From a virus (lineage: Duplodnaviria; Caudoviricetes): DNA of 44,277 nt. The position numbers and the translations under genes were made by a program. A model generated the notes under the pieces. The model saw only the letters and a program-made list of their open reading frames with translations, was not told where the DNA came from and did no database searches. The DNA is taken from positions 1 through 44,277 of the IMG/VR virus record IMGVR_UViG_3300043344_000001; one strand, given 5' to 3'. This document shows, one piece after another, positions 1 through 20,797 of the stretch. The first letter of the stretch is position 1, and the number at the start of each line of letters is the position of its first letter.

Positions 1-5
1 ATGCA

Positions 6-35: not shown

Positions 36-65
36 CCCCTACCTTCAAATCCCCTCACACTCTGA

Positions 66-6072: not shown

Positions 6073-6118
6073 GGGTCCTTTCGTAGGGGTCTCATTATAG
6101 GGCATGTTTCTTATGCGA
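6073..6118 (-). promoter_or_regulatory. Cassette promoter plus RBS, copy 1
   Basis: TCGCA-TAAGAA-AC-ATGCCC-TATAAT-GAGACCCCTACGAAAGGACCC. Confidence 0.85.
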
Positions 6119-6162
6119 GCAAAAACATAGGCGAAGTGGGAGCCCCGAAGGACCCCCACTCA

Positions 6163-6645
6163 TCACCGTGCGACCGTGAAGTCTGTCAACGCTCGCCAGG
6201 CCCCGTCGATCAGCAAAGTCTTCCGATTGGCCGGCCCGTCCGAGATGTACAGGAAGCCCAGCCTGGACCCAGGCCTCGAGGGCTTCAGCTCGACATGTAG
6301 AGTCACGTGGTGGTCGGAGTCGTAGCCGATCACATACTGAACCTTCCTGCTAGCTGAGGGCTCGTTGTGTTCTCCGTACTCACCCGTCGTGTTATCTCGA
6401 GCAGACGTTAGGAGCTCGATCGGCTCGAATCCCTCCTCGACGCACCCGTAGATGGTGACGTAGCGCTTTCCCCCGAGATTCGGCTTGTCCGGAGGGACCT
6501 CGCTGGGGTCACACTCCAAGGGCTTTCCAGCTGTGGTTTTGGCGGGGGCAGGAAAGGGGTCTTCCTTCGTCGGTCCCTCCGGTTCGCAGGCCAGTCCGGT
6601 CAAGAGGGCGAACACAGCCAACGCGATGATGATCCAGTTACGCAT
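6163..6645 (-). CDS. Lipoprotein
   Basis: Signal peptide MRNWIIIALAVFALLTGLA-C with lipobox, then a Pro-rich linker. Confidence 0.75.
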   Translation of the reverse strand: MRNWIIIALAVFALLTGLACEPEGPTKEDPFPAPAKTTAGKPLECDPSEVPPDKPNLGGKRYVTIYGCVEEGFEPIELLTSARDNTTGEYGEHNEPSASRKVQYVIGYDSDHHVTLHVELKPSRPGSRLGFLYISDGPANRKTLLIDGAWRALTDFTVAR

Positions 6646-6656
6646 CTAGAATCTCT

Positions 6657-6743
6657 CTAGGGGGTTTGACCATTGTTCGCCCAAGACCAGGCGATGATGA
6701 AGACGACCGCGACGATCGCAAGGAACCAACTGAGACCTCGCAT
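6657..6743 (-). CDS. Small membrane peptide (28 aa, MRGLSWFLAIVAVVFIIAWSWANNGQTP)
   Basis: Translated by hand; ATG overlaps upstream TGA (TGATG coupling); one hydrophobic helix; fills the intergenic gap. Confidence 0.65.
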   Translation of the reverse strand: MRGLSWFLAIVAVVFIIAWSWANNGQTP

Positions 6744-7321
6744 CAGTCGCGCTCTTGCAGCTTGTTTCGAAGGTAGGGCTCTCCGGGCGCACAGTTTCGG
6801 TTCCGACACAAATTGCCGTCGGGGCAGTATTCATCGTGCTTCGCCTGGATGTTTTCCGGATACTTCGCGTCGTACTCCAGCGTCTCGACCGCGGTGGCGT
6901 TCGGAGGGAAGTATTCCCGCATATCGGCCGTTTCAGACGGATCGAACTCCGGAAGGATCGGAACCGTCTCGAATCCCAGACCCTGCTCCGCCGGCGGCAT
7001 GGTGTGCTTCTTGACGAACCAGGCCATGTATCGAGGGACGTCCATCTTCCGCTTGCTGCCGTCGTCGTAGATCGCGATGAACGAGACCGCGTTGGGGAGG
7101 ACCTGCAGCTCCGAGACGAATGACCACCGGTTGTACTTCAGCGCGCCGTTCATCGCTCGAGCGTTCAGTGGCTTCATCATGTCCTCGCGGAAGTCGGGGG
7201 CCTCGATCAAGACCTCCATGCCGTTCCGCAACTTGGTGCCGTCGAACAAGAGGTCCTCGTTTTCGGCGTCCATCACGTAGTACTTGTCGACGAACAAGGA
7301 ATCCCAGGGCTCTTCGGACAT
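6743..7321 (-). CDS. Hypothetical protein with a C-terminal His/Cys cluster
   Basis: ATG 7321 with SD GGGAG (ORF open to GTG 7357); H..YC....C...C near the C-terminus. Confidence 0.75.
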   Translation of the reverse strand: MSEEPWDSLFVDKYYVMDAENEDLLFDGTKLRNGMEVLIEAPDFREDMMKPLNARAMNGALKYNRWSFVSELQVLPNAVSFIAIYDDGSKRKMDVPRYMAWFVKKHTMPPAEQGLGFETVPILPEFDPSETADMREYFPPNATAVETLEYDAKYPENIQAKHDEYCPDGNLCRNRNCAPGEPYLRNKLQERD

Positions 7322-7354
7322 TTGTTTCTCCCTACTCGATTTTAAGAGGTCCGA

Positions 7355-7407
7355 CACCTCTAGGAAAGAGCCAGAACATGCCGCTCTGACCCAAACCTAC
7401 AAACGTC
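7355..7407 (-). terminator. Hairpin element with conserved flanks, copy A
   Basis: GACGTTTGTAGGTTT-hairpin-TTTCCTAGAGGTG; flanks identical to 7682-7733. Confidence 0.65.
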
Positions 7408-7648
7408 AGACGTCGACGACGGGTGCGAGTTCCGCGACAGCCTTGTTGGCCCACATGGCCGAGGTCTCGAGCTCGGTGCGAGCCACCGCTTTCGCCCGTC
7501 CGTTCGGGAGTGCTTCCTGCAGGAACAGGTCCATCTCGACGAAGCGAGCACGAACCTCCTGGTGCAGGGGCATCGTCACGTCGGTACCCTTGTGGAAACC
7601 GAAGCGCTGACGACTCTCTTCGCGGTCGGGCATTTCTCCAAGACCCAT
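7406..7648 (-). CDS. Acb2/Tad1-hairpin-like small protein (candidate nucleotide-signal sponge)
   Basis: RFGFH...LPNGRAKAVARTELETSAMWANKAVA pattern; ATG 7648 with SD AAGGAGG. Confidence 0.55.
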   Translation of the reverse strand: MGLGEMPDREESRQRFGFHKGTDVTMPLHQEVRARFVEMDLFLQEALPNGRAKAVARTELETSAMWANKAVAELAPVVDV

Positions 7649-7681
7649 TGGTCCTCCTTGATAGATCGACAGAGGCCTTAT

Positions 7682-7733
7682 CACCTCTAGGAAAAGACAG
7701 GTCCCCGTAACCCTGTCTAAACCTACAAACGTC
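7682..7733 (-). terminator. Hairpin element with conserved flanks, copy B
   Basis: GACGTTTGTAGGTTT-AGACAGG..CCTGTCT-TTTCCTAGAGGTG. Confidence 0.65.
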
Positions 7734-7737
7734 GGAA

Positions 7738-8082
7738 CTAGGCGAAGCGATCCGTGCCGGCCGGAACCAGGTTAGAATCGAAGATCGACGTGGGCTTTTC
7801 CACTGCTTCGAAGCTCTCGAGGAACGCTTTCTCCGTGTAGATCTTGTAGCTCGTACCGACCTGCAGGATCCGGTCGCCCACGAAGCCCTTGGTCTGACGG
7901 TCGTTCAGGGGCCGGAGAACCTCGACCCGGATGAACTTGACCGGCTTCTTTCCGGGAGTCGTGGGCTTAGTCTGCTGGACCTCGCCCCCGCACCACGCAG
8001 CCACCTCGACCAGGTTGGCGTCGGTGATCTGGATGACGTCCACCGGGAAGGACTTCCGGATGAACTTCTCGACCTTCAGCAT
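7738..8082 (-). CDS. Hypothetical protein, RKKPV..EA / GD(Y/W)I-type phage family
   Basis: KFIRKSFPVDVIQIT...VGDRILQ...KAFLESFE; paralogous to 9362..9631. Confidence 0.75.
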   Translation of the reverse strand: MLKVEKFIRKSFPVDVIQITDANLVEVAAWCGGEVQQTKPTTPGKKPVKFIRVEVLRPLNDRQTKGFVGDRILQVGTSYKIYTEKAFLESFEAVEKPTSIFDSNLVPAGTDRFA

Positions 8083-8451
8083 CTAATGCCTCTCTCGGAA
8101 CAGGATGCCCTTGTTCTGCATGTCGTTAATCGCGTTGAGCGCCTCGGTCTCGGTCATGCCGTACTGCATGAGGCTTTCCCGGACCTTGAGGAGGGTGTTC
8201 TCGTCCGAGAAGAATTGATCTGTGACGTCGTCCGGATGCTTCTTGCCGGTCAGGAAGTCTTCTCGGGTGTACCTCGAGACCTCTTCCCCGGCCTCCTCTT
8301 CGACCTCGGTCTTCTCGTAGTGGTTCACCGACAGAGAGAAGTCGAAGTTCAGCTGAGACAAGCCCTTCGCAAGCTGAGACAAGCTGTGATAGCCCGCCGC
8401 AGCTTCGATGTCGCTCCGGGGCATGACGGTCAACGAAAAGACCTTCTGCAT
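8083..8451 (-). CDS. Hypothetical protein (122 aa)
   Basis: ATG overlaps the SSB stop (TGATG); C-terminal AINDMQNKGILFRER. Confidence 0.75.
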   Translation of the reverse strand: MQKVFSLTVMPRSDIEAAAGYHSLSQLAKGLSQLNFDFSLSVNHYEKTEVEEEAGEEVSRYTREDFLTGKKHPDDVTDQFFSDENTLLKVRESLMQYGMTETEALNAINDMQNKGILFRERH

Positions 8452-8978
8452 CAGTGCCACTCTCCTTCGAGCACTCGTGGATCCTGTTCTGGTCCGGCTT
8501 CCAGTTCCAGCCGGCTGGGCGCTGCGCCGATCTCGGGCACGTCGGCGTACTTGAGATCGAGGTAGTCTTCCTCGACTGTGAGGAACATCGACTTCAGGTA
8601 GGCCTTGATGCCCGACTTCCCACCGACCGCCCACGTGTACGGGCGGATGATCAGGTCGACCTTCTTGATGTCGACGAAGTCGAAGAGCTCGAGCTCCTCC
8701 TCGGTCAGATCGGTACGACCCTTGGAAGTGACCATGACTAGCTTCGGGGGTCGGAACTTGAAGCCCACCGAGACCTGAACATAGGGTCTGTCGGGGTCAC
8801 CCTCCTCTCGAGACCGGAGGGCCTTGATGTTCCAGCCGTCGCGGAGCATGTCTTCGGCAGCGCCTTCGTCGAGAAGCACGCAGAAGTTTCGATCTCCCTC
8901 TGCGTTGTACTTCCCCTCCTTGCCGGCGAAGTTCCGGAAGACCAGCTGTGCATCTTCAATGATGAGCGAACCGCTCAT
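8451..8978 (-). CDS. Single-stranded DNA-binding protein
   Basis: IEDAQLVFRNFAG..GDRNFCV..IRPYTW..GIKAYLKSM OB-fold phage SSB pattern with acidic tail; lies in the replication block. Confidence 0.75.
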   Translation of the reverse strand: MSGSLIIEDAQLVFRNFAGKEGKYNAEGDRNFCVLLDEGAAEDMLRDGWNIKALRSREEGDPDRPYVQVSVGFKFRPPKLVMVTSKGRTDLTEEELELFDFVDIKKVDLIIRPYTWAVGGKSGIKAYLKSMFLTVEEDYLDLKYADVPEIGAAPSRLELEAGPEQDPRVLEGEWH

Positions 8979-9205
8979 TTCTTCTCCTCGATCACGCAAG
9001 CTTCGGTATGGGCCAGAGGCTCTCTGCTTCCGAGATCAATCGGTCCAAGAGACAGAGAGCCTTCAGCCTCCGAGAAGCCCAGTCGATCAGCCATTTCGTG
9101 ACTGGTGAAATGAGCTTCTACGGATCCGTTCGATTTTACGGTTGCGTTCCCGACAACGACACGTTCGCCGTCAATGTGCACAACCAGGGGTACGATCTTG
9201 CTCAT
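8975..9205 (-). CDS. Hypothetical protein (76 aa)
   Basis: ATG 9205 lies just after the upstream stop; stop overlaps the SSB start (ATGA). Confidence 0.65.
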   Translation of the reverse strand: MSKIVPLVVHIDGERVVVGNATVKSNGSVEAHFTSHEMADRLGFSEAEGSLSLGPIDLGSREPLAHTEACVIEEKK

Positions 9206-9206
9206 C

Positions 9207-9362
9207 TTAACCCTTCTTGGGTTTGATTCCCTTGGTGCAGGGCTGAATGAGGTTAGCCATGTGGTGACACTGGCATGCCCCACAAGTCCAACACCCCCAA
9301 GGAACATCTGAGAAACTTCGCATGCTGTGGCTCTCGTGAATCTGCGGATCCTTCTCAGTCAT
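9207..9362 (-). CDS. Small Cys/His-rich protein (51 aa, MTEKDPQIHESHSMRSFSDVPWGCWTCGACQCHHMANLIQPCTKGIKPKKG)
   Basis: Translated by hand; TGATG coupling to the upstream gene; exactly fills the gap; CxxCxxCxC cluster. Confidence 0.65.
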   Translation of the reverse strand: MTEKDPQIHESHSMRSFSDVPWGCWTCGACQCHHMANLIQPCTKGIKPKKG

Positions 9363-9631
9363 CAGATTCCCTCGTACCTGCGCCTGAATTCCCGCTCACG
9401 CATGACGTCGAACTCCCCACCCATGCTCTTGACCACGAAGTCGCCCTCGCTGGCGCGCTTCACCCCATCGAGGGTGGGGATGTTCAAGGCCACGAATCGT
9501 CTGAGTGAATTGACCGGGTCGATCTCCTCGACCACCCGGCCGCCAGTCCACGTTGCTGCCCGTTCTACCGTCTCAGGAGTCAGTTGAATGGCCTCGACTG
9601 AGACGGGGATCAGTCGATACCGACTCGGCAT
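9362..9631 (-). CDS. Hypothetical protein, RKKPV..EA / PTLEG / GD-type phage family
   Basis: RYRLIPVSVEAIQL...IPTLDG..ASEGDFVVK...GEF.....F...YE; TAATG coupling at 9631. Confidence 0.8.
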   Translation of the reverse strand: MPSRYRLIPVSVEAIQLTPETVERAATWTGGRVVEEIDPVNSLRRFVALNIPTLDGVKRASEGDFVVKSMGGEFDVMREREFRRRYEGI

Positions 9632-10035
9632 TACCGCGTCGGCCATTCGCCATCGGTAACACAGAGGTTGCCGACCTTCAGGTAGGCGTCGATGTACGCC
9701 TCCTTCTTGTCGCCGTTGTAGGTGACCTCGTAGTACATCTTGTCGGGAAGGGTGCTGCTGACCAGCGCCTTCCAGTTCTGCAGCGTCTTGGAGAACCAGA
9801 CGATGTACACGCTGAAGTCGGGCGTCGGGTCGGTCTTCTCGAGGTGCTCGAGAACGTACGCCTGAACCAGGTTACGAGCCCGATCCATGTACGACTCGAC
9901 CACGTCGGTTCCGTAGTTGTGATCCACGTCTTCTCCTTTGCAGATGCATTGACGGACGAGATATTCGCATGCGTTGCAGCGTCGATTCATGGCATCATCT
10001 CGGTGCGTCTTTGCTCCACATTTCTCACAACTCAT
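9631..10035 (-). CDS. DUF6275-like protein with an N-terminal zinc-finger-like extension
   Basis: VYIVWFSKTLQNWKALVSSTLPDKMYYEVTYNGDKKEAYIDAY; N-terminal CxxC..CxxC..CxC. Confidence 0.75.
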   Translation of the reverse strand: MSCEKCGAKTHRDDAMNRRCNACEYLVRQCICKGEDVDHNYGTDVVESYMDRARNLVQAYVLEHLEKTDPTPDFSVYIVWFSKTLQNWKALVSSTLPDKMYYEVTYNGDKKEAYIDAYLKVGNLCVTDGEWPTR

Positions 10036-10049
10036 ACGAATATCCCTCC

Positions 10050-13000
10050 TTAGTTGATGAACTCCTCGAAGTCCCCGAACTTCTCGATGGTCTTGATTGC
10101 GGTATCAACGAGGTCCTCGAAGTACCGCATGTCGATCGCTTCCTCGGATAGATCCTTAGCGATGTCCGCCTCAGCCCACAGATATCCCTTGGTGCCGGAC
10201 ACTGCGTAGGACTTCCCGTCCTTGACGCGCCAGAGTGTTCCCCCTCCGAAACCCTCTTTCACGGGGACAAACCGTCCGGTGCGGCCGACGAAGGTCATCG
10301 ACTCCCAATCATCCTTGTCCTTCGAGTGAATGAAGTCCAAATACATAGCCCCCTGAGTAACCTGCTTAGTCTCACACAAGTCATTGAACTCGATAGGAGC
10401 CTGACGATTGAGAAGCTTCTTGAACACGTACGGATGCTGGAATTGAGCTCCCACCGCAACCCAATGCGGGGTAAGGCAGTCCTCCTCTTTGGCGATGTAT
10501 ACCGCGTCGTTTACGAGGCAGAACTTGTCGTACGTAGCCTCGTGTTCGAATGTGTATCCGTACTTCTCACCGAACTGCTTGACTTCTTCGATGATCTCCG
10601 GTGTAGCACCAGGAATTTTCACCGAGTCAGTCTTGATGTGGGCGACCGTGAAGCCCCTCTCCTGCAGGAAATGCTTCAGATCGATCATGAACAAAGCGCC
10701 GCGCTTGGCAACGATGTTGTCCACGTTCCGGACATCCCTGAAGGCGTTATCGAACTTCGCCGAGGTCAGACCGTAAACGATGTTGATGACGATCTTGAGA
10801 GCATCCGAAAGGCCGCGAAGGTCACTCTCAGTACCGCCAAGATACTTAGTGAGCTTACCTCCAAGGAGATCTTTCGCCTCGTCGTAATGCTTGCCCTTAA
10901 TTGCCAGACGGGCAAGTACAAGTTCTTCGAAGGCTCGAGTGTACTTACCAAAGAGGTCGAGTTGGCGTATACTAGTCGGATGCATAGACGCCACGTCCAG
11001 AAGCGCCACATCTGAATAGATCCCAGGTTCAGCGTATACGTATCCGCCTTCACCGGTGACCTCGCCTCGATACGTACTGACACCACGCTCATATATGTAC
11101 CCCGGGAATTCTTTGCTGAGATCGGTATAAACGAAATCACTACGGGGGTTTCTGTCTTCGCCGAAGATGATCTTGGCAGTGTGCTTCTGGGTCGTGTCGT
11201 TGATCGACAGACCGCTGAGCTCTGCAAGGATCTGACGCGCCACGAAGTCTGCATGCCGAGCCTCGAAGGTTGCTTCGGTGGCTAGAACATCATTGACGCA
11301 GTACTCTTCGACCTTCTTCCAGAGCTTCTTGTCGACTGGAAGATCCCATGGCAAATCGAGTTCGACGTGGGGAATACCCAACTCGATCTGGAACTTCTTC
11401 AGCCCCTGCTTCTTCGAGCTGAAGTCGTAGATGTCTGCGTAAGAGAGGTTGTAGGCCTCCCCGAACAGAGCTCCCGACTTGTCGTCGATGATCTTCTTCG
11501 AGAGCTTGTAGAGCGACTCGTTATCATAACCGAGATACGCTGCGTACAAGATGTGGTTGTCGTACCGGCGGTTGTTGAAGCCGATCAGCTTGAGCTTGAA
11601 CAGGCCCTCGACGTCCTGCGCACTGGGGTTGATCATGCGCACGACAGTCGGACTACCTTGGTACTTCCAGCAGATGACAAAGAGATTTGGGTAAACCTCG
11701 ATGTCGAAGAAGACCAACGGATCGTCCTTGGGCGGAGGAGTCGTGTCGTTCGGATCCTTTTTGGCGTATGGGAAGGGCTCCATCCCAGCCATACAGATCT
11801 CGTCGTCCGATTTGAACCGCATCTTCTGAACGACCTTGAGGGCCATCAACGGCTGGTGAGAACTGTTGTTGGCAAACGCGATCGTCTTGTTCTTCAAGTC
11901 GGTCACGTCGTACTTCATCCCCGACAGATATGCATCCTCGAGGATCTTGTAGATGAAATCGATCGAAGGCTTGGTACCCGGATGGATTTCCTTTCGGAAG
12001 TTCCTAGCGATGAGTTCCCGGAGCCCCCTCTCGCTCTGGATCGTCGACGCTTCGAGCACCTTCTTCTCCTTGATCGGGAGTCCACTGTTGATTTCTGCTA
12101 TCGGTACGTTATTACATCTAGTAAGGCGACGGCGGAGCGAACTGGCACCTGTGAATACCTTGATCTCGATTCCGTCAGAGTAATCTGAACGAAGTTCGGA
12201 CGGTTCTCCACCGGTGTAATTGTAATGGAGATGGACTCCAGCGCCGCTTTTGCTAAGCTCGGCATAAGTGGCTGGCCACTCGCTAGCCGCACCCAGATTT
12301 CGTTCAAGAGATCTTCCACCGGCATCGTCCTTGAGATCGAAGTCGACTACGATGTGATTTTCGGGGACTCTTACGTAGTGAAGATCTGTGGATACGATCT
12401 CACCCAGAGTTGTTTTGACATCCGACCACCGCTTCTGCGGAGTGCCATCCTCTTTGGCCGGCTGAGCAGGTTGATTCGCATACTCCAGGTCGAAGATGGA
12501 CGTTGTTTCGTCCATAACCAAAGAGAACGCTGTCGCTGGCTCAGATATGGGTGCCTTAAACGGATGCGCAGTGAAACCGGAGTAGTAGCTTCGAGTGATG
12601 ACGCCGTCCACGGTAGTTCGGTCAGAAAACTCTTTGAAGTAATTCCGGAGTTCCTCACGAACCTTGTACTGAGGTAGAGGGCGCTCGATCCCTGTATCAC
12701 TGCAGAACTCCTTGTACAGTGCGTAGGCTTGCTTGAGGGTCGTTCCGTCCTGCTCCTTGAACACGTCGTAGTTAGCCTCGATGAAGTTGAAGAAGATGTC
12801 TGTCTGCAGCATCATCTCGAGGGGTCGATATGTGTTGTAGAAGTTCTTCCCCATTTTCCGATAGATCTCGAGGCAGTGGTAAGCGATTGCTCCCAACTCG
12901 AAATCTATTCTGGCCATCAACGCGTGGTAGTGATTTGGAGCTAATTTGACTCCGGTTGGGTGGACATCGATCAGACGTCTGATGATGCCCGACTTCGCAT

Positions 13001-13835
13001 CTGAGATCTTGACGGGCTGGTTTGTGCCCATCAACAAGAGAGCGTTTGCTTTGCCGGTATAACTGGCCTTGTACTTCTCGTTGAACGTCATCTCCTCGTG
13101 AGAAATGATTGAGTTCAACTTGGTGTTGTCGTCGATCTTCGACAAGTCTCCATCGTGTTGGATCGCAACAAGAGGGTTAGACTTGAAGACCTCGGTCGAG
13201 AAGGCGTTGCCGTTGGCGCCAAGAGCTTTTGCTTCGAAGGTGGTTGTATAACCGTCGAAGAGTTTCTGGATGATGTTCAGGACGGTGGACTTACCTGTTC
13301 CCGCCGGCCCGTACAACACCAAGAATTTCTGGATCTTCTTCGAGTCCCCCGAGATAACTGCGCCGATGGCCCATTCGATCTTCGCCCGTTCTTCTGGTGC
13401 GTAGAGGGTACCGACGAGTTCATCCCAAGCGCTGATATCTCCGGAGGATAGGTTATATGGAAGCCGCCGACTGACGTAGTCGTTCTTCTTGACTTCGGTG
13501 TTTGCGAATGTCAAGGTCTCGTCTAGCTGGTGACTGTTATCACTGATTTGACCAATGAACTTACGGAACTGATTCCAACCATTGGTGTTGAACGATCGCA
13601 TGTATTTCACGTTCGAGTCTAGGCCACTTTTTTGGGCGTACTCACGCAGTTCGTGGTCCACAAGACGCTGTACATCGTACTCGTCCCGAGACCACAAACC
13701 TTGTGTGTCATCCCAAATTGCGTAGAATGACCGACCTCGAACCATCAGATCCTTTGAGCGACCCACCACGAAATCTGGGTACACCTCAAAGGTTCCACCT
13801 TTGGCCTCTCGAGTGGAGACCTGGAAGAAATCCAT
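10050..13835 (-). CDS. SF3 helicase - primase (AEP/PrimPol-like) - family B DNA polymerase fusion
   Basis: GPAGTGKS Walker A and MGTN; VVDFDLK and SKSGAGVHLHY; exonuclease FFDIEVY, GFNNRRYD, YCVNDV; polymerase DVASMHP, KIVINIVYG, IKTDS. Confidence 0.9.
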   Translation of the reverse strand: MDFFQVSTREAKGGTFEVYPDFVVGRSKDLMVRGRSFYAIWDDTQGLWSRDEYDVQRLVDHELREYAQKSGLDSNVKYMRSFNTNGWNQFRKFIGQISDNSHQLDETLTFANTEVKKNDYVSRRLPYNLSSGDISAWDELVGTLYAPEERAKIEWAIGAVISGDSKKIQKFLVLYGPAGTGKSTVLNIIQKLFDGYTTTFEAKALGANGNAFSTEVFKSNPLVAIQHDGDLSKIDDNTKLNSIISHEEMTFNEKYKASYTGKANALLLMGTNQPVKISDAKSGIIRRLIDVHPTGVKLAPNHYHALMARIDFELGAIAYHCLEIYRKMGKNFYNTYRPLEMMLQTDIFFNFIEANYDVFKEQDGTTLKQAYALYKEFCSDTGIERPLPQYKVREELRNYFKEFSDRTTVDGVITRSYYSGFTAHPFKAPISEPATAFSLVMDETTSIFDLEYANQPAQPAKEDGTPQKRWSDVKTTLGEIVSTDLHYVRVPENHIVVDFDLKDDAGGRSLERNLGAASEWPATYAELSKSGAGVHLHYNYTGGEPSELRSDYSDGIEIKVFTGASSLRRRLTRCNNVPIAEINSGLPIKEKKVLEASTIQSERGLRELIARNFRKEIHPGTKPSIDFIYKILEDAYLSGMKYDVTDLKNKTIAFANNSSHQPLMALKVVQKMRFKSDDEICMAGMEPFPYAKKDPNDTTPPPKDDPLVFFDIEVYPNLFVICWKYQGSPTVVRMINPSAQDVEGLFKLKLIGFNNRRYDNHILYAAYLGYDNESLYKLSKKIIDDKSGALFGEAYNLSYADIYDFSSKKQGLKKFQIELGIPHVELDLPWDLPVDKKLWKKVEEYCVNDVLATEATFEARHADFVARQILAELSGLSINDTTQKHTAKIIFGEDRNPRSDFVYTDLSKEFPGYIYERGVSTYRGEVTGEGGYVYAEPGIYSDVALLDVASMHPTSIRQLDLFGKYTRAFEELVLARLAIKGKHYDEAKDLLGGKLTKYLGGTESDLRGLSDALKIVINIVYGLTSAKFDNAFRDVRNVDNIVAKRGALFMIDLKHFLQERGFTVAHIKTDSVKIPGATPEIIEEVKQFGEKYGYTFEHEATYDKFCLVNDAVYIAKEEDCLTPHWVAVGAQFQHPYVFKKLLNRQAPIEFNDLCETKQVTQGAMYLDFIHSKDKDDWESMTFVGRTGRFVPVKEGFGGGTLWRVKDGKSYAVSGTKGYLWAEADIAKDLSEEAIDMRYFEDLVDTAIKTIEKFGDFEEFIN

Positions 13836-13851
13836 CTACCCTCCTTTCCTG

Positions 13852-14382
13852 CTAGTAGTCGCGCTCCAGGAGGTATGCGCTCAACTGGTACCAGATCTCG
13901 ACTTGTCGTTGATCCTTTTGGGGATCCTTGAGTGGAAACAGACCGCCAGTGCCATCAGGAGAATATGTCCGCCAAATGACTTGGTCAAGACAGTCGTCGA
14001 TCCTCTTTCTCGGAAGGGTCTTGTTGTCCGTGCACCGATTCAAACCAAGATTCTTGACGAGATGCCAGAACCAAGTTTGCGGCCGACCTTCGGCTTCGAA
14101 TGCTAGACGCCGAGACACTCCGATGAGCATCTCGAGCATCGAGCATCCGAACATCGCCCAGTCTTCTCCAGCAACATGAAACCTCATGTCGTCGAAGAAT
14201 TCGATCCTTAGGTCTCGGCCATCCTCTGCTCGGTTGTCATCATTGGGAATGATCCAGACAAACTCTTTCTTGTAGAGCTGCCTCAACAATTCCCAGTAAG
14301 TTTTTGATGGATTTGTTTCTTCAACCGAACTGACCTGACCGCAGAGCCACGTGAAATAAGTCTCATCAAGTGGCTCGCCCAT
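13852..14382 (-). CDS. Conserved hypothetical protein
   Basis: DDNRAEDGRDLR, CSMLEML, GGLFP, VEIWYQ; coupled to the upstream gene. Confidence 0.8.
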   Translation of the reverse strand: MGEPLDETYFTWLCGQVSSVEETNPSKTYWELLRQLYKKEFVWIIPNDDNRAEDGRDLRIEFFDDMRFHVAGEDWAMFGCSMLEMLIGVSRRLAFEAEGRPQTWFWHLVKNLGLNRCTDNKTLPRKRIDDCLDQVIWRTYSPDGTGGLFPLKDPQKDQRQVEIWYQLSAYLLERDY

Positions 14383-15065
14383 TAGTCGCTCCGGAGCCCA
14401 GCGACTTCTTCTCCGTACTTACCTTCGCTGCGGAGGATCTCGAAGTCACGCTCGAGCGAGTCGTTCCGAACGTAGACGACGTTCTTATCCCCGGATCGGT
14501 ATCCGAATCGGAGACAGTCCAGGCCGACGGTCATGTTGACGTTCTCAACGACCTGGTCCTGCTGATCCGCGAGAACATCGTCGCCGGCGTAGAACGTCAG
14601 AGTGTCCTGGGTGTACTCCGGCTCGTTCTCGAGGAATTCTTCCTTGCTGACGATGTACGGAGCCTCTTCGGTGCGGTTCCGCTTCTCCTTCTCGAAGTCG
14701 ACCTCTTCCTCAGCGTCAATCTTCTGGAAGACGTTCGCGATGACTTCCTGCACCGAAGGCTTGGTCACCACGCCGGGGTGGTACTTGTTAACGCCCTGAT
14801 AATTGTGCAGAGCCTCGACCGCCTCGTCCATGAGAGGTGCCGGCGCCGTGACACCCAGCAACTTGTCGACAGCTGCCGCTGGCGTTGCGAAATCGCCCTT
14901 CTTGTGCAGGGCGCTGTAGAACTTCTTGGCCTCGGCGATCTCCCGCTTCACCAGCTCGTCGTACTGCTTCTCGAGCTTCTTCTTCGTCAAGAAGTAACCC
15001 GCTGCAGCACCAGCAGCCAGCGACAGAACGGAAGACACGCCGATGACCATGGTTTGCCGATTCAT
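14382..15065 (-). CDS. Membrane-anchored hypothetical protein
   Basis: N-terminal hydrophobic helix, coiled coil, acidic C-terminal PYIVS..F / VYVRN domain. Confidence 0.8.
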   Translation of the reverse strand: MNRQTMVIGVSSVLSLAAGAAAGYFLTKKKLEKQYDELVKREIAEAKKFYSALHKKGDFATPAAAVDKLLGVTAPAPLMDEAVEALHNYQGVNKYHPGVVTKPSVQEVIANVFQKIDAEEEVDFEKEKRNRTEEAPYIVSKEEFLENEPEYTQDTLTFYAGDDVLADQQDQVVENVNMTVGLDCLRFGYRSGDKNVVYVRNDSLERDFEILRSEGKYGEEVAGLRSD

Positions 15066-15961
15066 CAGTCTCCGATCTTGTCGTAGATGACGCCATCCAC
15101 GTTGAAGTCGAGACGGATGGCCTGCTCGCGGCCGTTGACGAAGGCCCGGGACCGCTCGCGGTTGGCGTTGAAGATCCCGAAGTCGACGAAGTTGTCTCCG
15201 TCCTTGCTGACGATCCAGCCCACGACCGCGCCGGCCTTGGTCCGCTCGATGCCCAGCTGGTCGTAGACCTCGTTCAGGAACAGGTGGCCCTTGGCGCGCA
15301 GCTTGTCGTTCGCGTAGTTCTGCTGCGCCCGGAGGAAGAGCATGTTGTACTCCGCCTCCCGCTGGAAGTCCGGGCAGAGCTCGTCGAAGAACTTCGAGTA
15401 GACCGAGAAGCCGTTCGGGTCCAGCTCCTTGATCGTCTTGGCGACCGGTCCCTCCTTCGTCTCCTCGATGATCTCGCGCTCGACAGTTCCGTATCGGAAC
15501 TCGCGGTCCTTGTCCTCACCGTACTCGCCGATGACCCGACGACGGTACTCGTTCCAGCCCTTGTCGAGGGCCGCGTAGGCCGCTGTGACGCCCGCCAGGC
15601 GACGATTGAGGACAACGTGGGATCCGGTGAGGGCCGCGATCGAAGCGACGCCCACGAGGACTGCAGGGCCGTACAAACGCGAGATGTTGATGACGGCCTT
15701 GGTGTAGATGAGGACCTTGTCCTTCCGGCGGTCCTCCTCGGTGTACTTGGCGAGCTGAGCCGACTCGATGGTCAGGACGTCCTTCTCGACGCCTTCGAGA
15801 ACCGCCTCGAGCTTCAGCGTCGCCTTGCTGGCCAGAACCACGGTCGTGACGATGCCGACCACGCCGGCGCCGAACAGCAGAACGGGCGAGTGCTTCTGAG
15901 CGGTGAGAATCTGTCGTCCCATCTTACTGGTGACGACATTTGCCAGTGCTTTGAAATTCAT
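15065..15961 (-). CDS. DUF6353-like protein, paralog 1
   Basis: KHSPVLL.GAG.VG; Y.PA; LFLNEVYDQLG..VVGW..LDFNVDG. Confidence 0.8.
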   Translation of the reverse strand: MNFKALANVVTSKMGRQILTAQKHSPVLLFGAGVVGIVTTVVLASKATLKLEAVLEGVEKDVLTIESAQLAKYTEEDRRKDKVLIYTKAVINISRLYGPAVLVGVASIAALTGSHVVLNRRLAGVTAAYAALDKGWNEYRRRVIGEYGEDKDREFRYGTVEREIIEETKEGPVAKTIKELDPNGFSVYSKFFDELCPDFQREAEYNMLFLRAQQNYANDKLRAKGHLFLNEVYDQLGIERTKAGAVVGWIVSKDGDNFVDFGIFNANRERSRAFVNGREQAIRLDFNVDGVIYDKIGD

Positions 15962-16098
15962 CAGAGTTTACCTTCCTCGCGAAACTTCAGGACGATGGCC
16001 AGGAGTTGTTTGGGTGGCATCTTGTCGACCTTCCGACGCCATGCCTTGGTTGGGAATATCGTCTTGACGAGTTCCCGCATTGAGTGTTCGTTGAGCAT
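15961..16098 (-). CDS. Small basic protein (45 aa, MLNEHSMRELVKTIFPTKAWRRKVDKMPPKQLLAIVLKFREEGKL)
   Basis: Translated by hand; starts 2 nt after the upstream stop; its TGA overlaps the next ATG. Confidence 0.75.
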   Translation of the reverse strand: MLNEHSMRELVKTIFPTKAWRRKVDKMPPKQLLAIVLKFREEGKL

Positions 16099-16099
16099 G

Positions 16100-16741
16100 T
16101 CAGTCGAGCTGTTCGGGCTTGGGGAGACTCAGCAGGTATCCGTCACGAACACGAACTGCCTCGGATCCACGCAGATCCGTCCAGCCGTATTTCTCGTCGG
16201 TGAAGTTTCCGGAAACTCCGACGAGTTCGTACAGATCTGAGACGGTTGCCTGCTCGTATCGGGCAATGATGTCGTAGAGACGATCGATGACCGTCACTGC
16301 TTCCACTCGAGTGGCGAGAATGATCTCGTCAAAGTCGTGCGAAGCCCTCGAGCGCCGGCTGATGTTCCGCGGTTCCTCTCGCTGACGCTGTTGGGGGTTA
16401 GGGGCGAAGCGGTTGTAGCTGACGTAGCCGCTGTGACCACCTGGACGAATGCCCGTCCTACGGCTGGTTGAGCGAGCCTCACCGAATATCATTCGTTCGA
16501 TGCCTTGGCTGACGGCGTCGGCGATCATGTCCTTTGCGGCCGGCAAAAGAACATCCACCAACACGTAGTTCATGACTCCGCGGGTGTCTCCACCGAAGAA
16601 CGTCTCGACGAACCGCTTACCCAAAGGCTTCTTTCGAGTAACCACCGTGCCTGTGGTGACCTGCTCGATTTTTTTCGCGGTTTCGGTGTTCTCCTCAGGA
16701 GCCGCTTTCGCCTTATGACTATTGGTTGGAAACTCTTCCAT
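16100..16741 (-). CDS. Conserved hypothetical protein
   Basis: FPTNSH N-terminus; C-terminal ATVSDLYELVG..DEKYGW module related to the DUF6353 C-terminal domain. Confidence 0.8.
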   Translation of the reverse strand: MEEFPTNSHKAKAAPEENTETAKKIEQVTTGTVVTRKKPLGKRFVETFFGGDTRGVMNYVLVDVLLPAAKDMIADAVSQGIERMIFGEARSTSRRTGIRPGGHSGYVSYNRFAPNPQQRQREEPRNISRRSRASHDFDEIILATRVEAVTVIDRLYDIIARYEQATVSDLYELVGVSGNFTDEKYGWTDLRGSEAVRVRDGYLLSLPKPEQLD

Positions 16742-16761
16742 TTTGCCTCGCGATCCAAGGA

Positions 16762-16800
16762 GAAAAACTAAGAGGCCGTGTTAGGGCTTCCTAGTTTTGA
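16762..16800 (-). terminator. Cassette terminator hairpin
   Basis: TCAAAACTAGGAAGCCC-TAACAC-GGCCTCTTAGTTTTT on the minus strand. Confidence 0.6.
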
Positions 16801-16804
16801 GTAG

Positions 16805-17053
16805 TTACTTCTGGAGCTTCTTCGTGACATTCTCTGTCCACCAGTTGGCGACAGCTTCGACCTTCGCGTCCGTGTACTTCTTCGATGCCTCAGCGACGAG
16901 GGCACCCATCACGTAGCCGCCCGCGGTCATCGACACGAGGTCGACGGTGTTGCGGGGAGTGGCGTTGTTCTGGATGACCTGGCTGACGATCTTGGAGGTA
17001 CCGGCGCAAACGACGAAACTGACAATGCCTTTGGCAACATCAAGTTTGTTCAT
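16805..17053 (-). CDS. Small hydrophobic cassette protein (82 aa)
   Basis: Lies between cassette promoter copy 2 and a terminator. Confidence 0.8.
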   Translation of the reverse strand: MNKLDVAKGIVSFVVCAGTSKIVSQVIQNNATPRNTVDLVSMTAGGYVMGALVAEASKKYTDAKVEAVANWWTENVTKKLQK

Positions 17054-17058
17054 GATTG

Positions 17059-17104
17059 GGGTCCTTTCGTAGGGGTCTCATTATGAGGCATGTTTTTTTC
17101 GCGA
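17059..17104 (-). promoter_or_regulatory. Cassette promoter plus RBS, copy 2
   Basis: TCGCG-AAAAAA-AC-ATGCCT-CATAAT-GAGACCCCTACGAAAGGACCC. Confidence 0.85.
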
Positions 17105-17224
17105 GAAATGGGCGCATGTTCGGGCATCGGCTGTCGTGAATAAGTCAGCATCCGGGAAAGAGCCTCGACCCCTCAGAAGGACTCTTGCTGACCCCCACAT
17201 CTCACTTTGTGCTGGTGTAAAGCT

Positions 17225-17368
17225 TTAGCGGTACGAGCGGTTGGAAGAGTTGTTGGCGGTGCGGATGACCACCCAGATCAGCCAGAGGCCGCCGGTGAGG
17301 ATGGTGAGGGTGAAGTCCAGCAGGAGACTGCCGAAACCGTACTGCTTCTGGCGACGTCGACGAGACAT
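17225..17368 (-). CDS. Small membrane protein (47 aa, MSRRRRQKQYGFGSLLLDFTLTILTGGLWLIWVVIRTANNSSNRSYR)
   Basis: Translated by hand; SD GAAAGGA; LTILTGGLWLIW hydrophobic motif. Confidence 0.8.
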   Translation of the reverse strand: MSRRRRQKQYGFGSLLLDFTLTILTGGLWLIWVVIRTANNSSNRSYR

Positions 17369-17408
17369 GACTGATCCTTTCGGTGATCTGGATATGGAAC
17401 GGGACTGT

Positions 17409-18017
17409 TTAGCCGTGGTTCTTGTAGCGGAGTTTCATGAACTGTTCGCTGGGCATCTCGAGGAGCTCGGCTCGGGTGTAGTCCTCGACGTACTTGACGG
17501 AGCTATCGTTGGGGTTCTTCATCGCCTCTTCGAAGATACTCGCCTTGATTCCCAGCGGGTCTTCCTCCATCAAGACCCTGCCGAGGGGTTTGAGATTGAA
17601 GGCCGGCGCGGCCTCCTTGGGCAGCTCGACGAAGCGCGTACTCTCCCTCTGGTTCTCGACCAGGGCCGCCGGAAGGATTCCCTTGACGAACTCCACCATC
17701 TTGTCGGCCTGGAAGAGCTCGAGGAACAGCTCGACGTAGGCCTCGGACTGGGCGAACGAATTGCGGATCTCGTCTGACTTGATGAACCGTCGGCCATCCT
17801 CGTGACGCTGACCCACCGCCAGCAAGAGGATGTCCTCGTAGGCCCTGAGGATCGCCGACCGATCGTCGGCCGAGATGATCGCCTTCAAGTAGTCCTCGAG
17901 GCCGGTCTTGTGCGTCAGCTCCATCCGGGCGAGTTCGGCCTTGTTGATGTTGAAGTAGAACGTCTCCGTGAGCTCGTTTCCGTCGAGGTCGTGGAAGGTG
18001 ATGTCCTTTTTGAGCAT
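17409..18017 (-). CDS. Conserved hypothetical protein
   Basis: MLKKDITFHDLDG..ETFYFN..KAEL; SD GAAAGG. Confidence 0.8.
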   Translation of the reverse strand: MLKKDITFHDLDGNELTETFYFNINKAELARMELTHKTGLEDYLKAIISADDRSAILRAYEDILLLAVGQRHEDGRRFIKSDEIRNSFAQSEAYVELFLELFQADKMVEFVKGILPAALVENQRESTRFVELPKEAAPAFNLKPLGRVLMEEDPLGIKASIFEEAMKNPNDSSVKYVEDYTRAELLEMPSEQFMKLRYKNHG

Positions 18018-18034
18018 TTTGTGCCTTTCGGGCT

Positions 18035-18069
18035 AAAAGGAGAAGCTCTGTGTGGTTAACAGAGCTTCT
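18035..18069 (-). terminator. Cassette terminator hairpin
   Basis: 10-bp stem AGAAGCTCTG/CAGAGCTTCT, loop TTAACCACA, then CCTTTT. Confidence 0.7.
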
Positions 18070-18104
18070 ACCTTAGAGGGTCTTTAGACGTTGGAACGAA
18101 TGGA

Positions 18105-18284
18105 TCAGACGGTCTCGGGGGTCGCCTCGACGGTCTCCTCGGAACGCGACTTCCGCCACTTGACCACGGCGAAGACGGCGCCCGCAGCGATGAGGCTGGC
18201 GGCGACGACGATCACAGCGGTCTTGGTGGTGGGGGCGTTCGAGGCGGCATCGGTGACGACGGTCTCGAGCTCGGGGGTTTCCAT
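18105..18284 (-). CDS. Small single-pass membrane protein (59 aa, METPELETVVTDAASNAPTTKTAVIVVAASLIAAGAVFAVVKWRKSRSEETVEATPETV)
   Basis: Translated by hand; SD GGAAGGA after promoter copy 3; strongly GC3-biased codons. Confidence 0.8.
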   Translation of the reverse strand: METPELETVVTDAASNAPTTKTAVIVVAASLIAAGAVFAVVKWRKSRSEETVEATPETV

Positions 18285-18289
18285 TTTGT

Positions 18290-18338
18290 GGTCCTTCCAT
18301 TTAAAGGGGTCTCATTATGAGGTGTGTAGATCTTGCGA
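18290..18338 (-). promoter_or_regulatory. Cassette promoter plus RBS, copy 3
   Basis: TCGCA-AGATCT-AC-ACACCT-CATAAT-GAGACCCCTTTAAATGGAAGGACC. Confidence 0.85.
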
Positions 18339-19097
18339 TCAGCTGAGTCGGTTGTAATCCCGAATTGGAGCGATCGCAAACGTGAGGGTCATGCAAGGCC
18401 GACCGTCTTCAGACATCGTCGCTGAGAACTTCAGGTCGAGTTGCTTGTCGACGTTCCAACCGACCTCGTCCGAGACGCCCGTCTTGGTGAGACCGATCAG
18501 GTAGTAGAAGTCGCTCAACGATGCGTACATGTCGTTGAGAACTGTGCCGTTGATGTCGTTCTGAGCCTTCCGCAACGTCTCCATGTCGCTGTGGAAATAT
18601 CGTCCGGAGTACATGTCATGACAGAGGACGTCTCCGCCCCCCATAATGACAACTTCGCGGGACGGGGGATTGTTCGTCACCCGGTCCTGAGCGATCTCGT
18701 CACGGACAGCTTGCTCCTTGCGTTCGCCGATCTTCTCGACGACTTTCGCCTTGTACTCATCGAAGGCCTTCTCGGATATGGCGACCATCGCAGCCATGGC
18801 GGCAGCTCGACGAGTACCAATTCGGTTGGCCATGATGATGCAGGCGATCGTCGTACATCCCATGGCGGCAGCCGGGACGTATAGCTTCCAGGTTGTTTGT
18901 ACGCGTTCCTTGGGTGTCAGCGAACGCTTCTTGATGTCCTGCTCCTCGTAGAAGATCTGGTACGAGGCTTGGAAAGAAGCCTTTCCGGTCAGATATGCCG
19001 TAGCTAACGTTCCGGTGACTCCGATGGCGGTCAGAATCGCAGGAGAGTTGTCTGCAGCGAACTTGGTAACTCTCGCAACTAGACCACTAAAATTCAT
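18339..19097 (-). CDS. DUF6353-like protein, paralog 2
   Basis: DNSPAILTAIGVTG; YVPAA; DMYSGRYF; ASLSDFYYLIGL..DEVGWN. Confidence 0.8.
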   Translation of the reverse strand: MNFSGLVARVTKFAADNSPAILTAIGVTGTLATAYLTGKASFQASYQIFYEEQDIKKRSLTPKERVQTTWKLYVPAAAMGCTTIACIIMANRIGTRRAAAMAAMVAISEKAFDEYKAKVVEKIGERKEQAVRDEIAQDRVTNNPPSREVVIMGGGDVLCHDMYSGRYFHSDMETLRKAQNDINGTVLNDMYASLSDFYYLIGLTKTGVSDEVGWNVDKQLDLKFSATMSEDGRPCMTLTFAIAPIRDYNRLS

Positions 19098-19359
19098 CGA
19101 TTGCCTTTCGAAGATCTTGGAGGAACTTCTCGTTCTTCGCGTCGCGAATGTTCCTCCGAGCTACCATTCGTGCGACAGGTATCCCTAAGGCTTCTCGACG
19201 CCTCACTTCTGCACGTGCTTTGCCGATCCGTCGTACGCGCCGCCAGTATCGGAATTCGATGATCACGATGTAGAGTCCGAACAGAAGTAGCGTCAAGAGC
19301 ATACAGACGCCGAGAGCGATCCCCACGGCCATCAGCGCGACAAAGGTGATCTCAGCCAT
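19087..19359 (-). CDS. Membrane protein
   Basis: Long N-terminal hydrophobic segment followed by a basic region; TGATG coupling. Confidence 0.7.
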   Translation of the reverse strand: MAEITFVALMAVGIALGVCMLLTLLLFGLYIVIIEFRYWRRVRRIGKARAEVRRREALGIPVARMVARRNIRDAKNEKFLQDLRKAIDEF

Positions 19360-19628
19360 CACATACTCCAAGTTGGTTTGGCGTATTCGAATGTGAGGGC
19401 CCGCGCCAAAGCCTTGTTCTCACGATATGACTGCACCAGCTTTTGCATGTAGTCACTCTTGTCGTTGCGCCGGCGGCGATGAGGGTGTTGCTTCTTGGGG
19501 TGCTTTTCCCTTTGCTCCTCGAGAACCTCCATGATGATCGCCGGCGCAACCCAGAAGAAGAACGCAACGATCAAGCAGAACACGATCACCTTGAAGAGCA
19601 GAACGAGGAAGTTCAGAAACTCAAGCAC
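19359..19628 (-). CDS. Membrane protein
   Basis: GTG with SD GAAAGG; hydrophobic N-terminus and basic C-terminal half. Confidence 0.7.
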   Translation of the reverse strand: MLEFLNFLVLLFKVIVFCLIVAFFFWVAPAIIMEVLEEQREKHPKKQHPHRRRRNDKSDYMQKLVQSYRENKALARALTFEYAKPTWSM

Positions 19629-19651
19629 GACGGGAACCTTTCGATCGAAGA

Positions 19652-19686
19652 CGAAAACCTAAAACCCTTGTGGGGTCTAGGTTTGA
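19652..19686 (-). terminator. Cassette terminator, near-identical to 19982-20017
   Basis: TCAAACCTAGACCC-CACAA-GGGTTTTAGGTTTTCG. Confidence 0.7.
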
Positions 19687-19700
19687 TGATCTTGTAGGGG

Positions 19701-19823
19701 TCAGGCTTCGATGGTGTCAACAATCTTCTTGGCGATCAGCTGCGTTGCGACCACAACCGCGATGTTGGCGGTGATGATGGCAGCGAGCTTGACGGCCGGC
19801 TTGTTGGCAAGGTTCTTCAGCAT
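19701..19823 (-). CDS. Small hydrophobic peptide (40 aa, MLKNLANKPAVKLAAIITANIAVVVATQLIAKKIVDTIEA)
   Basis: Translated by hand; SD AAGGAG after promoter copy 4; followed by a terminator. Confidence 0.8.
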   Translation of the reverse strand: MLKNLANKPAVKLAAIITANIAVVVATQLIAKKIVDTIEA

Positions 19824-19828
19824 GGCTT

Positions 19829-19871
19829 CTCCTTGGTAGGGGTCTCATTAAGAGCCATGTAAAACCTGCGA
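19829..19871 (-). promoter_or_regulatory. Cassette promoter plus RBS, copy 4
   Basis: TCGCA-GGTTTT-AC-ATGGCT-CTTAAT-GAGACCCCTACCAAGGAG. Confidence 0.8.
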
Positions 19872-19872
19872 C

Positions 19873-19931
19873 AAAAATAAGAGTCCTGGCACTTGTTGCT
19901 CAGCAGGATGTACGGCCTTCCGTTTCCTCTC
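19873..19931 (-). ncRNA. Putative ~55-nt structured small RNA
   Basis: Promoter copy 5 is followed by no ORF, but by hairpins ACGG/CCGT and TCCTG/CAGGA and a TTATTTTT tract. Confidence 0.5.
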
Positions 19932-19956
19932 ATTATAGGCCTTGTGTTTTCTGCGA
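19928..19956 (-). promoter_or_regulatory. Cassette promoter, copy 5 (no RBS block)
   Basis: TCGCA-GAAAAC-AC-AAGGCC-TATAAT-GAGA. Confidence 0.8.
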
Positions 19957-19981
19957 ATCTCCCCCGGGAATTTTTCCAAAT

Positions 19982-20017
19982 CGAAAACCTAAAACCCTTG
20001 TGGGGCCTAGGCTTTTG
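19982..20017 (-). terminator. Cassette terminator, near-identical to 19652-19686
   Basis: TCAAAAGCCTAGGCCC-CACAA-GGGTTTTAGGTTTTCG. Confidence 0.7.
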
Positions 20018-20020
20018 AGA

Positions 20021-20236
20021 TCAGCGAGCGATGGCCTTTGTTGCGATCTTCGCAACCTCAATTGCGCCTTTGGTTACCATCAACAGAAAGACCAATCTTG
20101 AAAGCTGTCCAGCAACATCGACGACGATCTCGGCATATGCCTGAGCGATATCGATATTGTTCTGAGCTTCTTCAGTGGTGGTTTCTGACGTGGCGTCCTT
20201 GACGAGCTTGACGTTGAACGAACGATTCTTGAACAT
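20021..20236 (-). CDS. Small cassette protein (71 aa) with a hydrophobic C-terminus
   Basis: Lies between promoter copy 6 and a terminator. Confidence 0.8.
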   Translation of the reverse strand: MFKNRSFNVKLVKDATSETTTEEAQNNIDIAQAYAEIVVDVAGQLSRLVFLLMVTKGAIEVAKIATKAIAR

Positions 20237-20240
20237 TATA

Positions 20241-20285
20241 GGTCCTTTCGTAGGGGTCTCATTATAAGCTGAGTAAACCCTGCGA
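20241..20285 (-). promoter_or_regulatory. Cassette promoter plus RBS, copy 6
   Basis: TCGCA-GGGTTT-AC-TCAGCT-TATAAT-GAGACCCCTACGAAAGGACC. Confidence 0.85.
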
Positions 20286-20289
20286 ACGC

Positions 20290-20323
20290 CAAAAAAGAGA
20301 AGGCGTGTATTTTCTACACGCCC
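20290..20323 (-). terminator. Cassette terminator hairpin
   Basis: GGCGTGTA-GAAAA-TACACGCC then TTCTCTTTTTT on the minus strand. Confidence 0.7.
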
Positions 20324-20355
20324 CCGCTTCCGATTTCCTGGATTAGATCAGTAAG

Positions 20356-20748
20356 TCACTTGGTCTTCAGAATGAAGCTCAGGGCTTTGGAGGTTACAAC
20401 GTTTGCACGTTCGTAGCCGATGATCAGCAGGATTCCGGCGATGTTCGCGGCAACGATCGCCAGCGTATCCGGGCTCACACGACGGGATTTCTCGAATTCC
20501 TTCGTCTTGAGGTCCATCTCGAGTTCGGCAAGCTTTACTTTGGAGTAGTTCTCCATTTCAGCGCTTTCCGCCTCGATCTTCTTCAAGAGGAAATTGTCTT
20601 CGGTCTCCTTCATCTTGTAGAGCTTGGCTAGCTGGTCGACCATTTTCTTGTACTCGTCGGAATCACTGTTTACACCGGCCATTTCGGAAAATACTCCGTT
20701 GATGGCCTCTTCGAGCCCTGTGAGTTCAGTAGGGACGTTAATGCGCAT
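20356..20748 (-). CDS. Coiled-coil protein with a C-terminal hydrophobic segment
   Basis: VSPDTLAIVAANIAGILLIIGYER..VVTSKAL; follows promoter copy 7. Confidence 0.8.
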   Translation of the reverse strand: MRINVPTELTGLEEAINGVFSEMAGVNSDSDEYKKMVDQLAKLYKMKETEDNFLLKKIEAESAEMENYSKVKLAELEMDLKTKEFEKSRRVSPDTLAIVAANIAGILLIIGYERANVVTSKALSFILKTK

Positions 20749-20754
20749 AATGAT

Positions 20755-20797
20755 TCCTTTCAGAGGGGTCTCATTATACGACGTGTTTCCTACGCGA
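20755..20797 (-). promoter_or_regulatory. Cassette promoter plus RBS, copy 7 (first promoter after the late genes)
   Basis: TCGCG-TAGGAA-AC-ACGTCG-TATAAT-GAGACCCCTCTGAAAGGAA. Confidence 0.85.

Follow-up and report, generated by a model that had tools for sequence, protein, structure and literature searches.

Organization of the repeats

The stretch of DNA considered here, the 44,277-nucleotide virus record IMGVR_UViG_3300043344_000001 (the window, taken at its full length), is the 44-kb genome of a soil phage of siphovirus type; all its genes lie on a single strand, and it belongs to the Streptomyces BI, Gordonia DJ, Lactococcus 1706 and FP_oengus group of phages. It carries a repeated 29-base intergenic element, TCGCR-N6-AC-N6-YWTAATGAGA, together with a gene for an 889-amino acid protein predicted to be a single-chain RNA polymerase (RNAP). 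All seven copies of the original prediction were recovered, on the minus strand only, with starts at 6118, 17104, 18338, 19871, 19956, 20285 and 20797 (Table 1), against a mean of 0.00 exact matches in 100 shuffles. Tolerating three mismatches added no further copy in the window (chance mean 0.55, maximum 3), and the structural arm (21–44 kb) was without an exact or near copy. Within this arm three open reading frames (ORFs) at 30691-33595 (-) match the major tail protein family phrog_2645 (320, 212 and 148 amino acids), with a 285-bp gap at 31138-31421.

The hexamer at the 3′ end of the element reads TATAAT in four copies, CATAAT in two and CTTAAT in one. In keeping with the original description, six of the seven copies continue into CCCCT..AAGGA, with an ATG 23–29 nucleotides past the hexamer, while the copy at 19956 has no Shine-Dalgarno (SD) sequence with ATG in the next 70 nucleotides. 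The claim that all copies are intergenic holds when SD-supported starts are taken; a mechanically called GTG ORF at 5827-6159 overlaps the copy at 6118, and the SD-supported start of the same ORF is at 6069. Since the stop codon of the preceding unit or a hairpin with a T run lies just before most copies, the region is read as a series of promoter-gene-terminator cassettes. Folding of the RNA that would follow the 19956 copy was no better than that of shuffled sequences (z -0.22), and an Rfam search of the window, this RNA included, gave no real match. Ahead of site 6, some 115 non-coding bases (17105-17220, minus strand) may form a stem, again with no Rfam match. A separate minus-strand element, CCC(C/G)GGRGG, occurs near 44269 at the left end, near 31077 between tail genes and near 19970 directly before site 3, and similar strings lie at the left ends of the genomes of relatives.

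Table 1. Features of the window discussed in the text.
Feature	Position	Strand	Remarks
Site 1	20769..20797	-	Directly after holin stop; ahead of 130-amino acid ORF 20356-20748
Site 2	20257..20285	-	After intrinsic-terminator-like hairpin 20325-20299; ahead of 71-amino acid ORF 20021-20236
Site 3	19928..19956	-	No SD/ATG after it; would drive a small non-coding RNA
Putative non-coding RNA	19872..19931	-	About 60 nucleotides; would end in a U tract
Site 4	19843..19871	-	Hexamer CTTAAT, without -11A; ahead of 40-amino acid ORF 19701-19823
Site 5	18310..18338	-	Directly after stop of ORF 18339-19097; ahead of 59-amino acid ORF 18105-18284
Site 6	17076..17104	-	Ahead of ORF 16805-17053; last site before the phrog_4079, DUF6353 and primase-polymerase module
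Site 7	6090..6118	-	Ahead of 80-amino acid ORF 5827-6069 and helicase
Eighth, degenerate site	3854..3882	-	Ahead of VRR-nuclease/exonuclease/RNAP operon; orthologous site in relatives
Predicted two-barrel RNAP	324..2993	-	889 amino acids, single chain; PHROG 4291; GADFDGD at 507-513; helix-turn-helix (HTH) modules at both ends; N-terminal LAHYG
82-amino acid gene, phrog_4303	66..314	-	Directly after RNAP gene; in 26 of 26 genomes
Terminal GC-rich hairpin	1..39	-	Holds TCGCR-N6-AC, with TCGCR in the loop; faces genome end
DUF7211 head-module protein	39885..40238	-	N-terminal LAHFG resembles RNAP N-terminus

Family range of the motif

In 7 of the 64 parts of the viral collection the exact pattern was found in 166 stretches, from which about 1100 are estimated overall. 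Profiles were drawn for 28 genomes, comprising the window, seven named phages chosen by their RNAP and 20 viral records chosen by the motif, and gave 317 sites with 7–27 per genome; in each of the 20 genomes for which strand was read the sites were confined to one strand. Across these sites the conserved columns are C2, G3 and C4 (0.94–0.96), C13 (1.00), A14 (0.97), T22 (0.90), A24 (0.93) and T25 (0.98), followed by four purines. The original prediction had placed an invariant AC in the spacer; the block is real, and is better described as (A)CA given the conservation of C13 and A14 family-wide. In the Lactococcus phages the CA box, spacing and hexamer are kept with the first box altered, CGC being present in 0 of 9 sites in P078 and 1 of 12 in 1706. 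Of 20 loci from a distant group, retrieved by means of the P078 protein, 11 were scanned with one strict pattern, which showed only a P078-type site and three unconvincing matches.

Co-occurrence with the RNAP gene, to which the original prediction had tied the motif, was borne out in 47 contigs analyzed from the 56 motif-bearing contigs of at least 40 kb. The gene is encoded in 42 of them, and the other five are truncated contigs that carry core genes of the clade and end before the RNAP operon. One apparent motif carrier without RNAP (G016) was rejected, the contig ending 1.5 kb after the helicase. When the choice was made by RNAP instead, 70 of 80 bacterial-assembly loci held a site and 144 of 145 sites lay on the RNAP strand, many of these sites being orthologous copies and hence not independent. 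In five clostridial genomes (26.1 Mb) all 30 matches clustered beside RNAP loci, with contig identity inferred from coordinates, and a reversed control gave none. Of 120 genomes from the class to which a Marmoricola record belongs, seven held a total of eight matches, vs two for the control. The motif is restricted to this phage clade and at background in host chromosomes (125 host genomes).

The motif and sigma-70

The absence of TTGACA at -35 noted in the original prediction holds, as none of the seven window sites passes a sigma-70 -35/-10 scan. Family-wide, a TTGACA-like -35 at 16–18 nucleotides matches at five of six positions in 2 of the 317 sites and at four of six in 34, while the extended -10 TG occurs in 3 of 317 sites and in none of the seven window copies. 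The A at -11 is the base that sigma-70 needs most. The equivalent column holds A in 62% of the 317 sites, and in 0 of 14 sites in FP_oengus, 0 of 11 in the viral record G023 and 2 of 7 in RosaAsantewaa; at the loci picked by RNAP, where this column was left unscored, it reads T in 83, A in 43, G in 17 and C in 2 of the 145 sites. The -7T equivalent (T25) is near-invariant, as in sigma-70. Taken as a whole, the conservation is not that of a sigma-70 class of promoter. A -24/-12 interpretation of the sigma-54 type was also weighed and dropped, the box spacing differing from the consensus for that factor.

The motif has been published before. The papers on the Gordonia cluster DJ phages Vardy (PMC9671010) and Conley (PMC10868162) describe five copies of an intergenic motif of 50 and 43 bp, respectively, with a "TATAAT -10 sigma-70" sequence. 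This is the same element in the same place, the Vardy genome having seven exact matches to the window pattern and motif position 49 or 50 being where the ATG falls in the copies before genes 39, 40, 44, 52 and 55, in agreement with the paper (PMC9671010). The two papers deal with one cluster and with the sigma-70 -10 reading, make no link to a polymerase (Vardy gp89 being "hypothetical") and do not mention the family range, the variability at -11 or the operon site. No paper linking the motif to the polymerase was found in the literature searched, Summer et al. (2011) and Garneau et al. (2008), which may describe the motif, lying outside that search; the accessible text of PMC13313380, PMC5513430 and PMC13432834 was likewise silent on such a link. 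That the repeats are strong early promoters for host sigma-70 alone, with the upstream boxes serving as contacts of some kind, is the published reading (PMC9671010; PMC10868162), and the TATAAT in four of the seven window sites and the cassette layout speak for it; with no -35, no TG, an unconserved -11A and a background level of the motif in the host genomes it is considered very improbable.

The 889-amino acid protein and the core genes

The 889-amino acid protein is predicted to be a YonO-like, 1706-family two-barrel RNAP. Relatives are encoded in 250 phage records (Arthrobacter 95, Gordonia 55, Streptomyces 54, Lactococcus 13 and others), the closest being that of Streptomyces phage RosaAsantewaa (66%), and GADFDGD, with D509, D511 and D513, is invariant across 65 aligned rows. 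The predicted model (pLDDT 80, pTM 0.64) has as its top Foldseek matches QDE-1 (E 6e-10), the Thermus phage gp64 RNAP (7.5e-9) and RDR2, with a global TM of only about 0.3. A sequence search of the PDB returned HTH-like stretches only, and the ESM Atlas held no model of this protein. The literature searched yielded no assay of DNA-dependent RNA synthesis for it. The family was predicted as RNAP in 2010 and 2021, the accessible text of Ruprich-Robert and Thuriaux (PMC2919709) listing the 1706 protein among YonO-like families and that of Koert et al. (bioRxiv 10.1101/842583), which defines the supercluster, assigning the protein as a putative YonO-like RNA polymerase, HTH-bearing at either end, and containing no promoter motif. 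Of 27 rows, 26 keep R113 in the second HTH; the odd one out is P078, in which the CGC box is absent from all nine sites.

Eight non-structural genes are present in 26 of 26 genomes, encoding the RNAP, its 82-amino acid neighbor, an exonuclease, a VRR nuclease, a helicase, a primase-polymerase, DUF6353 and phrog_4079. Among them only the RNAP has a transcription function or recognizable HTHs, and a Pfam scan of the 58 window ORFs showed HTH matches for the RNAP alone. The 82-amino acid protein is a possible accessory factor. For phrog_4079 the ESM Atlas named no family and no named look-alike was found. Some core genes lie within the cassette region, with two DUF6353 paralogues at 15065-15961 and 18339-19097 and phrog_4079 at 16100-16741 (all minus strand). 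The primase-polymerase is a 1261-amino acid primase/helicase-polymerase fusion (phrog_4210; 10050-13835, minus strand), and an Acb2/Tad1 hairpin-domain protein at 7406-7684 (-) (Pfam PF24729, E 8e-13) is likely an anti-defense nucleotide sponge.

The seven repeats are probably promoters read by the phage's own 889-amino acid predicted RNAP and not by host sigma-70. Of the original proposal of a dedicated factor, what stands is that the motif is clade-restricted and at host background, lacks -35 and TG, varies at -11 and is accompanied in every complete carrier by an RNAP with HTHs. The choice that it left between the phage RNAP and host sigma with a phage activator is only partly settled; the RNAP is favored as the putative direct reader because, over the family as a whole, the hexamer does not behave as a conserved sigma-70 -10. 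The competing possibility is that the hexamer is recognized by the host sigma-70 holoenzyme and the CGC and CA boxes, standing in for a -35, by a phage factor, be it the RNAP HTHs acting without catalysis, phrog_4079, DUF6353 or the 82-amino acid protein. In its favor, actinophages most often have TATAAT as the hexamer, the CGC box would lie near -30 were the start sigma-70-like, and three core genes of unknown function are in all 26 genomes. Against this, T4-type promoters keep the sigma-70 -10, whereas here -11A can be missing genome-wide (0 of 14, 0 of 11); a single activator would have to serve the RNAPs of two phyla; the candidate genes lie downstream of the sites; and no separate activator was identified, with the Pfam HTHs confined to the RNAP and phrog_4079 lacking a named look-alike. 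This possibility is thought unlikely, though it is the strongest of the competitors.

Transcription start

Indirect signs suggest that transcription starts within the purine block directly after the hexamer, earlier than the distance of 6–8 nucleotides past it expected for sigma-70. With a lowered threshold ARAGORN placed tRNA-like 5′ ends at motif position 28 (four) and position 30 (three), among 16 calls on 689 sites. In 119 non-coding cassettes a closing helix of at least 6 bp was present in 69, of which 50 begin at position 27 or earlier, and helices from position 26 numbered 11 vs 0.44 in shuffles. In relatives, motif copies appear to drive tRNA or odd tRNA-like genes directly (L168 14604, L171 22379, L289 755, L297 4117 and L298 12645).

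The eighth site and the genome end

The original inventory was right in its seven copies and missed an eighth, degenerate site ahead of the RNAP operon, in which the upstream CGC and CA boxes have decayed while C13 and TATAAT-AGAA are kept. A variant site precedes the RNAP operon in most genomes whose site lists were read. In 74 close relatives the operon site reaches at least 12 bits in only 26, and C13 is invariant in 50 distinct copies, although this column was not used to find them. In clostridial prophages the sequence at the operon site is TTTTAT, with a short hairpin and U tract immediately behind it, possibly an attenuator. The leader after the operon site (3818-3857, minus strand) has a hairpin and U tract that are weak in the window and clear in the clostridial prophages (L329-L408). 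The eighth site is the last before the genome end and, with the ends joined, before the structural genes; since in P078 the lysin gene also directly precedes the RNAP gene, a late role for this site is possible.

At the end itself the terminal hairpin carries a sequence like the two upstream boxes, and at 22 of 33 distinct genome ends of relatives the spacing from TCGCR to AC is six. The AC also pairs in the stem, so that the resemblance to the promoter may in part reflect structure; the hairpin could be a terminase site, an RNAP docking site or a late site. The half-site at the genome end, and the position of the sites at the borders of a variable small-gene region, would also suit an operator or a recombination or cassette-exchange site ahead of exchangeable genes and not a promoter for RNA synthesis. 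The strict coding-strand orientation (144 of 145), lack of dyad symmetry, fixed distance of 23–29 nucleotides to the ATG, and terminators upstream with tRNA-like genes directly downstream make this the least probable of the explanations considered.

Possible virion location

In EU081845 the label "structural protein" is given to orf75, the 1706 homologue, whose neighbors are labelled "unknown." The N-terminal LAHYG of the RNAP has a counterpart in a protein of the head module (Table 1), and a loose form of it is found in 92 of 95 RNAPs. The orf75 label presumably comes from mass spectrometry. Virion delivery of the polymerase is given about two thirds of the confidence placed in recognition of the repeats, which leaves it slightly short of an even chance.

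A model for recognition and the points against it

Under recognition by the phage RNAP, the CGC and CA boxes, spaced by one helical turn, would be held by the HTH modules of the 889-amino acid protein; melting would take place at the AT-rich hexamer, with RNA beginning in the purine block that follows directly. The polymerase would probably be carried in the virion and fire the cassettes early, yielding small host-interaction genes, a small RNA and then the replication module, with the weaker eighth site driving the polymerase's own operon and possibly the structural genes across the joined genome ends. In its fullest form, an N-terminally tagged 100-kDa RNAP with built-in sigma-like HTHs would be packed in a siphovirus head, injected, and alone recognize a three-box promoter that is the same in phages of two bacterial phyla, with RNA beginning just past the hexamer; an attenuated version of this promoter would drive the polymerase gene and, over the junction of the ends, the late genes as well. 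This complete version is put forward tentatively and is on balance doubtful.

A number of observations weigh against the phage RNAP as the reader of these sites. The -11A equivalent is kept in six of the seven window sites and in every site of Poco6, Vardy, Circum, P078 and 1706, so that host sigma could use them. The co-occurrence of motif and RNAP is confounded by kinship, all carriers being of one clade, and the seven non-RNAP core genes, three of them of unknown function (66-314, DUF6353 and phrog_4079), are equally present in 26 of 26 genomes. Phage 1706 keeps R113 with CGC in only 1 of 12 sites (mostly CAC), and the covariation of HTH and box therefore comes down to one genome. As to the start, block permutation gives 5.1 helices from position 26 with a maximum of 11, equal to the number observed, and a stricter test (39 anchored of 93 non-redundant cassettes) finds covariation at position 28 only (p 0.01, nine positions, uncorrected), this test being weak in that a U tract can pair with either purine. 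The operon of the RNAP is itself preceded by a site of this kind, so that a seed is required, from enzyme in the virion or from leaky host transcription, and the induction of prophages would call for a different route. Only one record carries the virion label, and YonO, the characterized relative, is a late enzyme according to the accessible part of PMC5467207.

Comparison with known systems

Phage RNAPs of the T7 class, which have a Pol-A fold, read a private multi-copy promoter formed by a contiguous 23-bp site. The window resembles them in its private multi-copy promoter and in the purine run right after a TATA-like melting region, and differs in having a two-barrel enzyme and a site made of three boxes set apart. 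T4 middle promoters combine a MotA box with TATAAT and are served by MotA/AsiA; an upstream box in place of the -35 is common to both systems, but T4 keeps the sigma-70 -10 and the window family does not. A precedent for a polymerase-promoter pair of this kind is the Thermus phage P23-45, for which the accessible text of PMC10770324 assigns distinct motifs to virion (gp96) and non-virion (gp64) RNAPs. The likeness lies in the arrangement of a multi-copy motif before early genes and a single-chain two-barrel RNAP, and the systems differ in that start sites and occupancy were mapped in P23-45 and its virion enzyme is fused to the tape measure, whereas the window enzyme is encoded by a separate gene and carries HTHs N- and C-terminally (PMC10770324, same text). 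YonO of the Bacillus prophage SPbeta is likewise a single chain of about 100 kDa with DxDGD, and differs in transcribing late genes from one start where the window has many sites before non-structural genes (accessible part of PMC5467207). Its promoter sequence and factor needs are stated there as undetermined.

Implications

How single-chain two-barrel RNAPs find their promoters is open for YonO (PMC5467207, in the part available), and the motif family offers a sharply defined candidate site. As the family also has culturable phages on laboratory hosts (Streptomyces, Gordonia and Lactococcus) and natural variants, the question of promoter recognition becomes a simple experiment. If recognition by the phage RNAP is correct, it would re-annotate a gene found in about 250 phage records, where "HTH DNA-binding protein" is its usual name, correct the published sigma-70 reading and provide a candidate orthogonal polymerase-promoter pair for actinobacteria and clostridia. 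The fullest form of the model would also give this lineage a host-independent transcription program, which may explain its phylum-crossing range.

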